Part shown: in pieces, positions 1,277 to 30,906 of the stretch
Layout of the letters: the number at the start of each line of letters is the position of its first letter
Numbering within the stretch: position 1 is the first letter of the stretch
Origin: Nonlabens ponticola
GTDB lineage: Bacteria; Bacteroidota; Bacteroidia; Flavobacteriales; Flavobacteriaceae
Direction of reading: 5' to 3'
Assembly (NCBI RefSeq): GCF_003966335.1
Contig: NZ_CP034549.1
Coordinates: 690,001 to 722,000, forward strand
Length of the DNA stretch: 32,000 nt
Translations under genes and position numbers: made by a program
The notes under the pieces: generated by a model
What the model was told of the DNA's origin: nothing
The model's input: only the letters and a program-made list of their open reading frames with translations
Database searches by the model: none

Positions 1277-2413
1277 ATGCTGCTAGAAAATCCTATTTAC
1301 ATTCATGATACGGCGCTGGTTTCACCATTGGGCGATACTGGTTTTGATTCTCATCAAACCAATTTTGCACAGCAAGATGATGTTCTGGTAGGTCGTATCG
1401 ATGATCAATTTAAACAAGAACTTGAGGTGCTTGTCAAAAAACATCCTAAGTATCGCAATCTCGACAGATCTACGTTGCTCGCTATTCTAGCCGCTAGAAA
1501 GTTGCAGATTACTGATGCACAAACGGCGGTAAATATAGGTAGCAGTCGTGGTGCAACGGGAATTTGGGAAGATGCGTATAGTAGCTTTCGCGAAAGCGGA
1601 ACAACACCAACGCAAACCTCACCACTAACAACATTAGGAAATTTAAGTAGCTGGGTTGCACAGGATTTAGGAACTATAGGAACCGCTTTTTCCCACAGTA
1701 TCACGTGCGCCACCGCTTCACACGCAGTGCTTAATGCTATCGCGTGGTTAAACGCAGGAATGGCAACCAGCTTTATCGCCGGTGGTGCAGAGGCGCCGCT
1801 TACTGATTTCACTATTAAACAGATGCAGGCGTTGCGTATCTATTCCCAACAATCTGCCGAGTTTCCTTGCCGTGCCTTGGATCAAAATAAGAATCAAAAC
1901 ATGATGATTCTAGGCGAGGCAGCGGCGTGTTTACTGTTGTCAAAAAAGCCTGTCAAAGGTGGTATCAAAATTATAGGATATGGTACCTCTATTGAGAAGT
2001 TACAATCAGCAACCTCAAGTAGTGCCGAAGGAATAGGATTCCGGCAATCAATGAAAGCCGCGATGGGTGAGTTGCCTAAAGAATCTGTCGATACTATAAT
2101 CACGCACGCGCCCGGAACTATCATGGGCGATAATTCTGAACTTGCTGCGATACGAGCTGTTTACGGCGATAATCATCCTAGATTATGTAATAATAAATGG
2201 CAACTAGGTCACTCGTTAGGTGCCAGTGCCGCGGTAAGCCTGGTTATGGCTGCAAGTATGCTAGATAGAGGTGTTTTTCATTCAATTCCTTATCTTGAAG
2301 AACGAGTGATTAATCCTAGAAACACGAATACTGATCCTAAACAGATTATGGTAAACGCAAGCGGTTTCGGTGGGAATTGCGTGAGCATCTTGCTGGAAAA
2401 AAGCCAACATTAA
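1277..2413 (+). CDS. beta-ketoacyl-ACP synthase (KAS I/II)-like condensing enzyme embedded in the biotin cluster
   Basis: A Cys-His-His triad can be recognised: active-site Cys in SITCATASHAVLNA, then THAPGT and KWQLGHSLGASAA. The first ATG is at 1277; the track start at 1265 is TTG. The gene lies 56 nt after bioA and 62 nt before bioB. Confidence 0.75.
   Translation: MLLENPIYIHDTALVSPLGDTGFDSHQTNFAQQDDVLVGRIDDQFKQELEVLVKKHPKYRNLDRSTLLAILAARKLQITDAQTAVNIGSSRGATGIWEDAYSSFRESGTTPTQTSPLTTLGNLSSWVAQDLGTIGTAFSHSITCATASHAVLNAIAWLNAGMATSFIAGGAEAPLTDFTIKQMQALRIYSQQSAEFPCRALDQNKNQNMMILGEAAACLLLSKKPVKGGIKIIGYGTSIEKLQSATSSSAEGIGFRQSMKAAMGELPKESVDTIITHAPGTIMGDNSELAAIRAVYGDNHPRLCNNKWQLGHSLGASAAVSLVMAASMLDRGVFHSIPYLEERVINPRNTNTDPKQIMVNASGFGGNCVSILLEKSQH
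1584..1597. repeat. iterated palindrome GCTTTCGCGAAAGC, copy 1 (inside the KAS-like CDS, read as S-F-R-E-S)
   Basis: Exact 14-mer. Its right flank GGAACA is identical to that of copy 6, giving 20 nt shared. Confidence 0.95.
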
Positions 2414-2475
2414 ACAACGGCAATAGCTAGATAATCGCATCACTTTTCTATTTTTACCTAACTATACCAACATTT

Positions 2476-3567
2476 ATGCAAACTAGACACGACTGGACTA
2501 AAGAAGAGATACTAGAGATTTACAACAAGCCAATTATGGAGTTGTTGTATGATGCCGCGACCGTGCATCGTGAGTATCACAATCCTAATCAGGTTCAGGT
2601 TTCTACCTTGCTTTCTATCAAGACAGGTGGTTGTCCAGAAGATTGCGGTTACTGCCCACAGGCGGCGCGTTATCACACAGATATTGAAGGGAACGATTTG
2701 ATGAGTGTGCAACAGGTAAAAGCACAAGCGTTGCGCGCAAAATCAAGCGGTAGTTCCAGAGTTTGTATGGGTGCTGCATGGCGTAATGTTAAGGATGGAC
2801 CAGAGTTTGATCAGGTGCTAGAAATGGTACGCACGATCAACAAACTGGACATGGAAGTGTGTTGTACGCTAGGAATGATCACAGAAAATCAAGCGCACAG
2901 ACTTGCCGAGGCTGGACTGTACGCTTACAATCATAACCTTGACAGTAGCGAGGAATATTATAAAGAAGTGATCTCGACTAGAGGTTATCAAGATCGATTA
3001 GACACGATTGACAACGTGCGCAAAACCAATGTCACTGTCTGTAGCGGTGGAATTATAGGAATGGGTGAGAATGTAGAAGATCGCGCTGGCATGCTGGTCG
3101 CGCTGGCTAGTTTGAGTCCTCAACCTGAAAGTACACCTATCAATGCGCTTGTTGCTGTAGAAGGCACACCACTAGAGGAGCAGCAACCAGTTTCTATTTG
3201 GGAAATGATACGCATGGTGGCCACTACTAGAATTGTAATGCCACAGACTCAGGTACGTTTAAGTGCTGGTAGAACGAGTATGAGTAGAGAAGGACAGGCA
3301 ATGTGCTTTTTTGCTGGTGCTAACTCCATATTTGCAGGAGACAAATTGCTTACCACACCTAATCCAGATGTAAATGAGGACATGGAGATGTTCAAGATGT
3401 TAGGACTGGAGCCTATGAAGCCTTTTGTCAAGAAGGCACAACCAGAAACGGTTGAAGAGCAATACAGCAAGTACAAGGATCAAGGCGAGAAGCCACGCTG
3501 GACACGACCTGAACATAAGATCGAGCGCAATGAGCAGGCAAAGGAAGCTGCCAAGGCAAAAGTGTAG
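2476..3567 (+). CDS. bioB: biotin synthase (radical SAM)
   Basis: N-terminus is RHDWTKEEILEIY. The CxxxCxxC cluster motif GGCPEDCGYCPQ is present and the protein has BioB-like length. It carries a charged C-terminal tail of about 45 aa. Confidence 0.95.
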   Translation: MQTRHDWTKEEILEIYNKPIMELLYDAATVHREYHNPNQVQVSTLLSIKTGGCPEDCGYCPQAARYHTDIEGNDLMSVQQVKAQALRAKSSGSSRVCMGAAWRNVKDGPEFDQVLEMVRTINKLDMEVCCTLGMITENQAHRLAEAGLYAYNHNLDSSEEYYKEVISTRGYQDRLDTIDNVRKTNVTVCSGGIIGMGENVEDRAGMLVALASLSPQPESTPINALVAVEGTPLEEQQPVSIWEMIRMVATTRIVMPQTQVRLSAGRTSMSREGQAMCFFAGANSIFAGDKLLTTPNPDVNEDMEMFKMLGLEPMKPFVKKAQPETVEEQYSKYKDQGEKPRWTRPEHKIERNEQAKEAAKAKV

Positions 3568-3610
3568 ATTCAAGATAGGATTTTTTTCTACTTAACGATT
3601 AAACAATGGT

Positions 3611-29775: not shown

Positions 29776-30570
29776 TTAAGCCAAACTACCCGCAACTATC
29801 GCCACAACACCTACTGCAAAACAGTAATAAGAAAAGTAATGAAGTTTTGCTTTTTTAACCAGCGATATCATCCACGTACAAGCGATAAGACCAGTGACAA
29901 ATGCTGCCACAAACCCTAGAATGAGCGGTAAGCTGCCACTATCGCTCACGCTCAAGTCGCCGCTCAATAGGTCTTTACCTATTTTGCCTAAAATCAACGG
30001 CACTACCATTAGGAAGGAAAAACGTGCCGCCTTTGTGCGATCATTACCCAATAATACAGATGTCGAGATGGTAGCACCACTACGAGAGATACCTGGCAAC
30101 ATCGCAATTGCCTGAGCGATACCTATAAGAATAGCGTCTTTCCAACTAACTGCTTTACCAGTATTTTTTGCACGGCCAGCTAGAAAAAGTAATAATCCCG
30201 TAACGATTAACATAAAACCTACTAGGATCACATTACCACCAAAAAGCTGTTCTAGCTCTTCCTCAAACAACAAGCCTACAAAAACTGCCGGAAACATGGA
30301 AAGAACAATCTTTAGACAAAACTGCGTCTGCTCATTCCATTTAAATGAGAACAAACCAGCTAGCAATTCAATGATATCTTTTCTAAAAACGACAATAGTA
30401 CTCAGCGCCGTTGCAAAATGAAGTACCACGGTAAACATCAGGCTTTCTTCTGGCACGCTGTTGTCGCCTAGAATAGCTTTTCCTAGCTCTAGATGACCAC
30501 TGGAAGAAACAGGTAAAAACTCAGTAAGGCCTTGAATAACGCCTAAAATAATTGCGTCAAGAACCTCCAT
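29776..30570 (-). CDS. uppP: undecaprenyl-diphosphate phosphatase
   Basis: 264 aa, polytopic, with TEFLPVSSSGHL and MLPGISRSGATI motifs. Confidence 0.9.
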   Translation of the reverse strand: MEVLDAIILGVIQGLTEFLPVSSSGHLELGKAILGDNSVPEESLMFTVVLHFATALSTIVVFRKDIIELLAGLFSFKWNEQTQFCLKIVLSMFPAVFVGLLFEEELEQLFGGNVILVGFMLIVTGLLLFLAGRAKNTGKAVSWKDAILIGIAQAIAMLPGISRSGATISTSVLLGNDRTKAARFSFLMVVPLILGKIGKDLLSGDLSVSDSGSLPLILGFVAAFVTGLIACTWMISLVKKAKLHYFSYYCFAVGVVAIVAGSLA

Positions 30571-30855
30571 TTATTTTTCTGGATCTAGGAGAATTGCATA
30601 CACCTGAATGCCAAAACCAATTAGCACGAGCGCTGGCGCCAGCCTAATGCGTCGCCATGAGAAAATTTCTGGATTAAAAACGTTGGGATCGTCACTGCCG
30701 CCACCAGCCATCAGGCCAAATCCTAGAGCAATCACGCCCAAACCTATCAACATCCAAATGTAATTTTTGCGCTTAAAAATAAATTCAAAACGCGGCTCTA
30801 CATTTTGCTCTTGCTGCTTCACAGTTGCGTTACTAGAATGTTTTTTCTTACCCAT
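30571..30855 (-). CDS. DUF3098 small membrane protein
   Basis: 94 aa with two TM spans. Its stop abuts the uppP start. This is the usual ftsX-DUF3098-uppP-truB order in Bacteroidota. Confidence 0.7.
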   Translation of the reverse strand: MGKKKHSSNATVKQQEQNVEPRFEFIFKRKNYIWMLIGLGVIALGFGLMAGGGSDDPNVFNPEIFSWRRIRLAPALVLIGFGIQVYAILLDPEK

Positions 30856-30890
30856 AGGTTGTGGTTGTGCAGTTAGCTTGGTAGTTTGTT

Positions 30891-30906
30891 AGCTTTCGCG
30901 AAAGCT
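30891..30906. repeat. iterated palindrome copy 7, a 16-bp palindrome AGCTTTCGCGAAAGCT (intergenic, ftsX / DUF3098 leader)
   Basis: Exact core at 30892-30905. An extra half-site GCGAAAG lies at 30912-30918. Confidence 0.95.

Follow-up and report, generated by a model that had tools for sequence, protein, structure and literature searches.

The 32,000-nt stretch of DNA analysed here (contig NZ_CP034549.1, positions 690,001 to 722,000; hereafter the window, with position 1 its first letter) contains a dispersed self-complementary 14-mer, GCTTTCGCGAAAGC, which is also present in all nine other Nonlabens genomes or contigs sampled, at about one copy per 3.9 kb, and of which we found no copy in the other genera examined. 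Its copies occur in genes and spacers, stand at even distances from each other, and arose in place by point substitution. By analogy with the DNA uptake sequences (DUS) of Neisseriaceae, the uptake signal sequences (USS) of Pasteurellaceae and the highly iterated palindrome HIP1 of cyanobacteria, the motif may be a "self" tag that serves the uptake and/or recombination of DNA from the same species, a reading to which we assign a probability of about 0.4.

Copies in the window

Seven perfect copies and a single-mismatch copy, GCTTCCGCGAAAGC, make up the complete set of matches in the window at up to two mismatches. All eight had been located by the first-pass annotation of this stretch, which was made from the letters alone, and all were recovered by our scan. 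Dinucleotide-preserving shuffles of the window, in which the GC content is 38-44%, yielded a mean of 0.07 matches and a maximum of 1, compared with 8 observed. Under a third-order Markov (Markov-3) null trained on motif-masked Nonlabens DNA, the 14-mer has a probability of 4.9e-10 per position, or about 1.6e-5 expected copies per 32 kb, in agreement with the order of magnitude estimated in the first-pass annotation. The copies, together with one decayed relic, are the following:

1584-1597, perfect copy, in the beta-ketoacyl-synthase-like (KAS-like) gene at 1265-2413, + strand, encoding S-F-R-E-S
4795-4808, perfect copy, in recX at 4673-5149, - strand, encoding L-S-R-K; copies in the orthologs of Hel1_33_55, N. 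antarcticus and BBFL7
8346-8359, perfect copy, in mutY at 7478-8539, + strand, encoding F-R-E-S; copies in the orthologs of five further Nonlabens genomes
12544-12557, perfect copy, intergenic, between convergent EamA-type and M16 peptidase genes; symmetry extends over 22 bp, 12540-12561
17639-17652, single-mismatch copy GCTTCCGCGAAAGC, in the C-terminal extension of ribosomal protein L21, encoding A-S-A-K-A
20520-20533, decayed copy ACTTTCGCATAAGC with 3 mismatches, 47 nt 3′ of the adenosylhomocysteinase stop codon
22727-22740, perfect copy, in the PcrB/GGGP-synthase-like gene at 22640-23368, + strand, encoding A-F-A-K-A
26473-26486, perfect copy, in the ArfB-like peptidyl-tRNA hydrolase gene at 26347-26745, + strand, encoding A-F-A-K-A; symmetry extends over 24 bp, 26468-26491
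30892-30905, perfect copy, intergenic, between uppP (29776-30570, - strand) and ftsX (30996-31889, - strand); symmetry extends over 16 bp, 30891-30906

Six of the eight copies lie within genes, where every reading frame and either gene orientation is represented, and two are intergenic. Among the perfect copies, five of seven are genic (KAS-like, RecX, MutY, PcrB-like and ArfB-like), the same proportion as in the first-pass annotation, and two are intergenic.

Distribution across Nonlabens and other genera

In a protein search, the M16 peptidase of the window was 78% identical to those of N. agnitus and Nonlabens sp. Hel1_33_55, 75% to those of N. antarcticus and N. marinus, 69% to that of N. 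xiamenensis, 68% to that of N. spongiae, 66% to that of BBFL7 and 63% to that of CP019342, as against 57% for the outgroup SCB49; judging by these values, the window is Nonlabens DNA. Scans with peptide patterns had missed all Nonlabens, in genome and metagenome contigs alike, and the relatives at 63-78% identity emerged only from the protein search, so that an empty pattern-scan result is not to be equated with absence of close relatives. The Nonlabens DNA sampled amounts to about 208 kb from a handful of regions, with no complete chromosome among them, and includes the orthologous 22-kb region taken from seven Nonlabens genomes. As negative controls we used about 1.3 Mb from other genera of Flavobacteriaceae (Winogradskyella, Psychroserpens, Hanstruepera, Jejudonia, Dokdonia, Leeuwenhoekiella and others), consisting of 45 genome-contig loci and 33 metagenome loci of relatives at up to 55% identity, obtained by the peptide-pattern scans with the M16 peptidase.

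Counted at up to one mismatch, the orthologous regions hold 7 copies in N. agnitus, 8 in Hel1_33_55, 6 in N. antarcticus, 3 in N. xiamenensis, 5 in N. spongiae, 5 in BBFL7 and 6 in CP019342; in the N. spongiae, N. xiamenensis and CP019342 loci, copies are present despite large stretches that are not syntenic with the window. An unrelated host region on a 119-kb metagenomic contig, with ETF and MetK genes, carries 3 copies in 8.8 kb. Pooling the window with six loci (L197-L202) gives 42 sites in 164 kb, the one per 3.9 kb quoted above, and at the motif density of about 255 per Mb a genome of about 3 Mb would hold roughly 800 copies. Against the Markov-3 null, 39 perfect copies in 186 kb were found where 9e-5 are expected, an enrichment of about 4e5-fold.

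None of the control loci contained the 14-mer at up to one mismatch, and SCB49, the nearest outgroup sampled, likewise had zero copies. Nor did we find in these genera a comparable word of their own: they yielded AT-rich chance 11-mers only, and TGCAACTTTAG, a candidate "dialect" word of another genus, was checked and dropped. Since it is present genus-wide and absent from the other genera and from SCB49, the motif behaves as a shared derived character of Nonlabens among the genera sampled. The excess that the first-pass annotation had seen in the window holds for the pooled sample against the Markov-3 null and in the comparison with related genera, and an origin in one recently transferred block, which it had named among the findings that would refute its own proposal, is excluded by copies at orthologous core-gene positions throughout the genus and in unrelated regions. 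Altogether, 35 sites fall inside long open reading frames (ORFs) and 18 outside; 34% are thus placed in the 14% of the DNA that lies outside such frames, so that intergenic DNA is preferred, yet most copies are genic.

Origin, conservation and turnover of copies

No insertion was found at filled sites in alignments of RecX, ArfB and MutY with orthologs from other genera. RecX reads LSRK at the filled site and LSEK at the empty one, ArfB reads SSAFAKAE as opposed to SQVFSEEQ, and MutY aligns without gaps to its Flaviramulus counterpart, from which it can be taken as established that copies were created in situ by point substitution. The directed birth of a copy is visible at residue 65 of the EamA-type protein, where most species have a pre-adapted 9-10/14 match encoding SFAKT, and where N. 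antarcticus shows four changes toward the word, reaching 13/14 and encoding AFAKV.

Many copies are shared at orthologous positions within Nonlabens: PcrB residue 32 in 5 species (the window copy has orthologs in 4 other species and is missing in BBFL7), MutY residue 292 in 6, RecX residue 116 in 4, L21 residue 116 in 4 (the window and 3 other species, always with the same T-to-C variant at the same codon), and the site 3′ of the M16 gene in 5. The last of these, at 12544 in the window, is kept in Hel1_33_55, N. spongiae, BBFL7 and locus L206, and survives as a half-site remnant in N. agnitus. At four orthologous sites, each compared in 4-5 species, the 14-mer is 100% identical, synonymous codon positions included, and the flanking 60 nt have pairwise identities of 0.47-0.79, mostly 0.5-0.6. 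Copies are also lost. Where the window has the relic at 20520, N. agnitus, Hel1_33_55 and N. antarcticus have perfect copies, at an equal distance from the stop codon, and decayed relics occur in BBFL7, N. antarcticus and N. agnitus as well. The alignments establish that, despite deep divergence, the motif is kept at the level of DNA, and that its copies turn over.

The mismatch spectrum in 164 kb, at 0, 1, 2, 3 and 4 mismatches, was 35, 7, 3, 14 and 45 observed, compared with Markov-3 expectations of 0, 0, 0.13, 3.6 and 34; perfect copies dominate, and the mismatched tail is small. Seven of nine single-mismatch copies are the variant GCTTCCGCGAAAGC, found at three independent loci, and its variant position therefore appears tolerant.

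Conservation of the encoded peptides does not account for the conservation of the word. In Nonlabens ORFs, 8 of 8 FRES, 9 of 9 AFAK and 7 of 7 LSRK peptides are encoded by the exact motif codons, as compared with 2%, 0.8% and 0.04% predicted by codon usage, and FRES and AFAKA are both absent from 392,000 amino acids of other-genus ORFs. Judging by these codons, the DNA word drives the peptides and not the reverse, and coding-driven conservation is ruled out by the use of three frames together with the codon analysis. The first-pass annotation had likened the motif to HIP1 as a dispersed palindrome, and the likeness is borne out by the substitution origin, the use of all three frames and the dictation of peptide by DNA word.

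The in situ origin bears directly on the notion that the motif is a miniature mobile element, for which the models would be miniature inverted-repeat transposable elements (MITEs), repetitive extragenic palindromes and bacterial interspersed mosaic elements (REP/BIME), and the palindromic elements of Rickettsia. These share with the Nonlabens word a dispersed, palindromic nature, the Rickettsia elements can lie in frame within genes, and the excess of sites outside long ORFs would fit them too. They insert with a change in length, transposases mobilise them, and their bodies measure 35-150 bp, whereas the Nonlabens word shows no length change relative to orthologs and has neither a conserved body nor terminal inverted repeats nor target-site duplications outside about 16 bp, and it occurs in all frames and on both strands. 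Mobile elements, Rickettsia-type in-frame insertion included, are ruled out by the ortholog alignments, and we regard an origin as a mobile element or as an RNA or terminator hairpin (see below) as extremely improbable. The earlier conclusion that this is not a MITE, REP element, CRISPR array or insertion sequence end is upheld by the lack of indels relative to orthologs, of any longer conserved body and of an Rfam family, and a longer annotated repeat family overlooked at that time is excluded on similar grounds, there being no Rfam family, terminator or longer body.

Anatomy of the unit

Beyond the 14-mer, C at position -1 and G at position +1 are each present in 33 of 42 copies, extending the word to the 16-mer CGCTTTCGCGAAAGCG; a 20-mer form that includes flanks is TTCGCTTTCGCGAAAGCGAA. 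In the pooled copies no sequence conservation was detected outside ±1 of the 14-mer, only a composition bias: for about 15 nt the 5′ side is T-rich and C-poor and the 3′ side A-rich and G-poor. The first-pass annotation had proposed a palindromic unit of 22-24 bp. The extended symmetry of 22, 24 and 16 bp that it reported at three copies is real; as a general unit the longer palindrome did not hold up, only C at -1 and G at +1 being strongly preferred. Complementarity of the flanks at positions 1-4 is 1.88/4 within the same site and 1.90/4 between different sites, and slightly higher farther out, so the flank symmetry is compositional and not site-specific. An apparent oriented right-flank motif, A(C/T)CT(A/C)(A/T)C, was likewise dropped when the position frequency matrix revealed dyad-symmetric composition bias only.

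The oligonucleotide d(GCGAAAGC) is an unusually stable mini-hairpin, which made it a candidate for the functional unit. Isolated half-sites (GCGAAAGC or GCTTTCGC) do not occur in the window outside the full copies, and in the 208 kb there are 5 compared with 2.2 expected, three of the five being decayed full sites. The single-stranded core folds at -2.1 kcal/mol, no better than shuffles. The mini-hairpin was rejected on the unenriched half-sites, the weak core hairpin and the lack of compensatory pairing in the flanks, and the last two points also count against an RNA or terminator hairpin. With half-sites unenriched, flank symmetry compositional and the hairpin weak, the unit can therefore be taken as the full 14-16 bp dyad on duplex DNA, presumably read by something symmetric, and not as a hairpin, a cruciform or a site for a monomer.

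A terminator was also considered and rejected: the flanks are T-rich and then A-rich, the reverse of a terminator, the intergenic copies are not called by a terminator scan, and two thirds of the copies are genic, on either strand. Between the convergent EamA-type and M16 genes, a canonical terminator hairpin with a 13-bp stem is present at 12483-12512, beside the 12544 copy, which is therefore not itself the terminator. Structured RNA was dismissed on the weak core and the lack of any match to Rfam families anywhere in the window.

The word carries about 36 bits of information (28 in the 14-mer core), where 11.9 bits would suffice to specify a site every 3.9 kb. Such an excess does not usually result from ordinary binding-site evolution; it is also seen in uptake sequences.

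Even spacing

Successive copies in the window are separated by 3211, 3551, 4198, 5095, 5088, 3746 and 4419 bp, with a coefficient of variation (CV) of 0.18 for the 8 copies, a regularity overlooked by the first-pass annotation. For eight random points in 32 kb, the probability of a CV this low is about 1e-4 and that of a minimum gap this large about 7.5e-5; in a retest with 50,000 trials, both were below 2e-5. In the pooled loci the smallest gap is 1386 bp, a value reached in 0 of 20,000 simulations, and the CV is 0.54 (P=1e-4). Because the loci share orthologous sites, spacing was also tested per locus, giving a CV of 0.20 for CP019342 (P=0.002), 0.23 for BBFL7 (P=0.012), 0.23 for N. spongiae, where sites are mostly non-orthologous (P=0.012), 0.46 for Hel1_33_55 (P=0.02) and 0.39 for the independent metagenomic region (P=0.06). 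Copies repel each other at short range.

Phages and prophages

Among viral contigs, low-GC flavobacterial phage contigs were found with at least 2-3 copies each, some of them with portal, HK97 capsid and connector genes and others Mu-like, with a DDE transposase. Three copies lie in a prophage region of N. tegetincola. Where several loci share a contig, prophage density is at least about one per 5-15 kb, compared with one per 3.9 kb in the host. The virulent Nonlabens phages P12024S and P12024L (JQ823122 and JQ823123; L203 and L204) have zero copies at up to two mismatches in 35.7 and 35.0 kb, respectively, whereas host density would predict about 9 in each. Density falls from the chromosome to resident prophages and to zero in virulent phages, and the motif accumulates only in chromosome-resident DNA. 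The idea that phages acquire the motif to pass as self was rejected for virulent phages in view of the zero copies.

A Mu-like transposable prophage lies beside metK in a Nonlabens-like host, at 8800-21971 of L205 (JGI 3300040782 contig Ga0450786_087747), with similar cases in L078 and L045. It encodes an S24/helix-turn-helix repressor, a 656-aa DDE transposase, an AAA_22 MuB-like protein and a DUF3164 protein, is kin to Winogradskyella phage Peternella_1, and contains 2 motif copies in 13 kb.

The two virulent phages avoid GGCC (0 compared with 35 expected), CCGG (2 compared with 34) and CGCG (9 compared with 44), and lack TCGCGA; none of these four words is avoided in Nonlabens host DNA. This is a pattern of ordinary restriction avoidance, not specific to the motif, and it implies HaeIII-, HpaII- and FnuDII-type systems in the hosts, among which CGCG-type modification may be common. 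It is here that a neutral origin of the word has to be weighed. Elhai reportedly modelled HIP1 as the product of a methylation-linked or mismatch-repair ratchet, and the Nonlabens word might similarly be a by-product of such a ratchet, or of CGCG/TCGCGA restriction-modification, with biased repair converting near-matches and the word itself having little or no function. The centre of the word is TCGCGA/CGCG, the CGCG avoidance and the missing TCGCGA of the virulent phages suggest that CGCG-type restriction-modification is common in the hosts, the change in the EamA-type gene was multi-step and directed, and an association of HIP with methyltransferases is documented (PMC4390886). Even spacing and a minimum distance between copies are not predicted by a neutral ratchet, however; host TCGCGA that is not part of the motif shows neither enrichment nor avoidance, and the phages avoid GGCC and CCGG more strongly, so that their avoidance of CGCG is not peculiar to the motif. 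We know of no methyltransferase or Vsr-type repair enzyme with 14-16 bp specificity, and consider this scheme improbable.

Possible function

If the motif is a tag for uptake or recombination, DNA fragments with a copy would, during natural transformation, be preferentially taken up or recombined, and new copies would thereby spread through the population. A second copy near an existing one would bring little added benefit, and there would therefore be one copy per typical fragment length and hence even spacing; DNA that is rarely or never chromosome-resident would gain no copies. A symmetric protein dimer would read the site, whose central CGCG/TCGCGA may be methylated, and selection or biased fixation following the point-substitution origin is the best explanation for the motif being held in place. 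Support comes from parallels with known self tags in the genus-level "dialects", the dominance of perfect copies, the excess information, the tolerant positions in all frames, the even spacing and the depletion in phages. In its full form, to which we give slightly less weight than to the general reading, the proposal would make the motif the first sequence-specific DNA "self" tag in Bacteroidota: a palindromic uptake/recombination signal of 14-16 bp, read on duplex DNA by a dimeric and possibly methylation-sensitive receptor, with biased uptake or recombination accounting for the 4-kb spacing, and forming a third independent class beside DUS/USS and possibly HIP1. The list of roles given in the first-pass annotation can be narrowed: a duplex site for a symmetric reader in uptake or recombination, a nucleoid-protein site and a methylation-linked process survive. 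The analysis speaks against hairpins or cruciforms, terminators, mobile elements and monomers that read a half-site.

DUS and USS resemble the Nonlabens word in having lineage-specific "dialects", a density of about one per 1-4 kb, tolerant coding positions, both strands in use, a core with AT-rich biased flanks, even spacing (for USS) and a preponderance of perfect copies with a mismatched tail, and in being under-represented in phage DNA; Treangen and colleagues reportedly found in 2008 that they are rarer in phage or recently acquired DNA. The core with AT-rich flanks is the USS consensus (PMC1939737), and the USS of H. influenzae are evenly spaced according to Karlin et al., as cited in the same paper. 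They differ in being asymmetric 9-12-mers with a pilin-type receptor, as opposed to a perfect 14-16 bp dyad, and their role in uptake, with ComP as the DUS receptor, has been shown by experiment, whereas for the Nonlabens word such a role is putative.

HIP1 (GCGATCGC) is also a hyper-abundant palindrome found in genes and spacers, with substitution-based spread, conservation at orthologous positions and a quasi-regular, non-random distribution (PMC5861425, PMC4390886), and it too has a tolerated one-off variant and lineage-specific variants. It is, however, an 8-bp cyanobacterial word, and the Nonlabens word has 14-16 bp, a different sequence and a range of a single genus in Bacteroidota. HIP1 is enriched 15-300-fold, compared with about 4e5-fold here; it reaches 300-2700 copies per Mb, the Nonlabens word lying near the low end with about 255; its periodicities are of 10-90 kb, compared with a regularity of about 4 kb that is a minimum-distance effect; and it is accompanied by cognate, often orphan, methyltransferases, none of which is assigned to the Nonlabens word. 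Of relevance to function, HIP1, for long a word without a known role, raises natural transformation in a way that depends on methylation (bioRxiv 10.1101/2024.09.10.611283) and is also a proposed uptake signal (bioRxiv 10.64898/2026.06.24.733823).

Several points weigh against a tag for uptake or recombination. We found no paper on Nonlabens competence, and the analysis identified no receptor or methyltransferase. Classical DUS and USS are non-palindromic and 9-12 bp long, and a perfect 14-16 bp dyad is more reminiscent of sites bound inside the cell by dimeric DNA-binding proteins such as those of the ParB/Noc type. The conservation, even spacing and phage gradient would be equally expected of a selected nucleoid-protein site, and the roughly 208 kb examined comes from few regions.

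The main rival, which we think unlikely though less so than the others considered, is accordingly a dimeric protein peculiar to Nonlabens that would bind the copies and act, after the manner of ParB, Noc, SlmA or MatP, in the nucleoid, in segregation or in SMC loading; the spacing of about 4 kb would organise the chromosome, and purifying selection would keep the sites. The perfect duplex dyad with its independent half-sites, the even spacing, the conserved orthologous copies and the absence from virulent phages all fit such a site, and HIP1 periodicity has been given the same interpretation (PMC5861425). The parS site TGTTNCACGTGAAACA and the Noc-binding site (NBS) ATTTCCCGGGAAAT are, to our knowledge, palindromes of 14-16 bp with TTTC/GAAA arms, read as duplex by dimers and in some cases genic. 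In these, TTTC and GAAA are separated by 4 bp, compared with 2 bp in the Nonlabens word, and the half-site differs: a test against the parS consensus as we know it failed, with only about 3/8 half-site positions in common in register, and with the Nonlabens word present at one per 4 kb in several unrelated regions. The sites known for such proteins are much scarcer, at tens per genome as opposed to about 250 per Mb (the Nonlabens copy number is 10-100 times that of parS and NBS, and unclustered), and they are degenerate and conserved over families or across phyla, not in a single genus. The information content, three times what is needed, and the accumulation of copies in prophages are not obviously explained by a nucleoid site.

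Still more doubtful than the repair ratchet is a Chi-like or other "self" marker that would halt or modulate RecBCD/AddAB or an SMC-type defence, so that host DNA is repaired and not degraded, a palindrome acting in both directions. Its density of about one per 4 kb resembles that of Chi in E. coli as we know it, the motif is genus-specific, is lacking in virulent phages and occurs in resident prophages, a coverage-type function would predict even spacing, and a Chi-like role has been proposed for HIP1 (bioRxiv 10.1101/2024.09.10.611283). Known Chi sites, by contrast, are of 5-8 nt, asymmetric, single-stranded and co-oriented with replication, as opposed to a duplex dyad of 14-16 bp, and the analysis found nothing, experimental or genomic, that ties the motif to a nuclease.

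Taken with its neighbours in kind, the motif would belong with the hyper-abundant genomic words maintained by selection or drive, and it appears to be previously undescribed. It fails the defining features of HIP1 (sequence and phylum), of DUS/USS (asymmetry) and of parS/NBS (consensus and copy number). The statement of the first-pass annotation that no equivalent was known for Flavobacteriia agrees with our search, in which the searchable literature contained no relevant mention of the 14-mer or of its 10-bp core, no description of an iterated palindrome in Nonlabens or Flavobacteriia, and nothing relevant on Nonlabens competence or methylomes. There are few hyper-abundant words like DUS, USS and HIP1, and each of them started a line of work on self-DNA recognition or chromosome folding. 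The Nonlabens word is an unusually clean case, with about 28 bits in its core, strong enrichment and almost only perfect copies; its sharp one-genus boundary makes a comparative search for the reader gene straightforward, and its very regular spacing constrains the possible mechanisms. Should it prove to tag DNA for uptake or recombination, Bacteroidota would have a first such signal, which would explain preferences for self DNA such as that of Riemerella columbina (Flavobacteriales), which prefers its own DNA in transformation and has no known uptake sequence (PMC7965970). The 16-mer could then be placed in constructs as a practical genetic tool for marine flavobacteria, and the length of the word would make the receptor easy to fish out. 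Should it prove to be a nucleoid site, it would reveal a new system of chromosome organisation, anchored at about 800 points per genome (one per 3.9 kb in about 3 Mb).

Gene context of individual copies

The MutY copy at 8346 is located in the linker preceding the NUDIX-like domain. The L21 copy lies in a low-complexity linker within a C-terminal extension of the ribosomal protein (window 17300-18016), which is about 130 aa long and rich in Lys, Ala and Ser; in relatives, this extension has Pfam matches to HHH_5 (helix-hairpin-helix) or Rho_N. The copy at 1584 was excluded from the ortholog comparison, the loci of the relatives ending short of that gene. It is part of a biotin-synthesis cluster at 135-3567, which comprises a BioA-like aminotransferase, the ketoacyl-synthase-like gene and the radical-SAM protein BioB; in Hel1_33_55, an alpha/beta-hydrolase gene adjoins bioB, replacing the ketoacyl-synthase-like gene.

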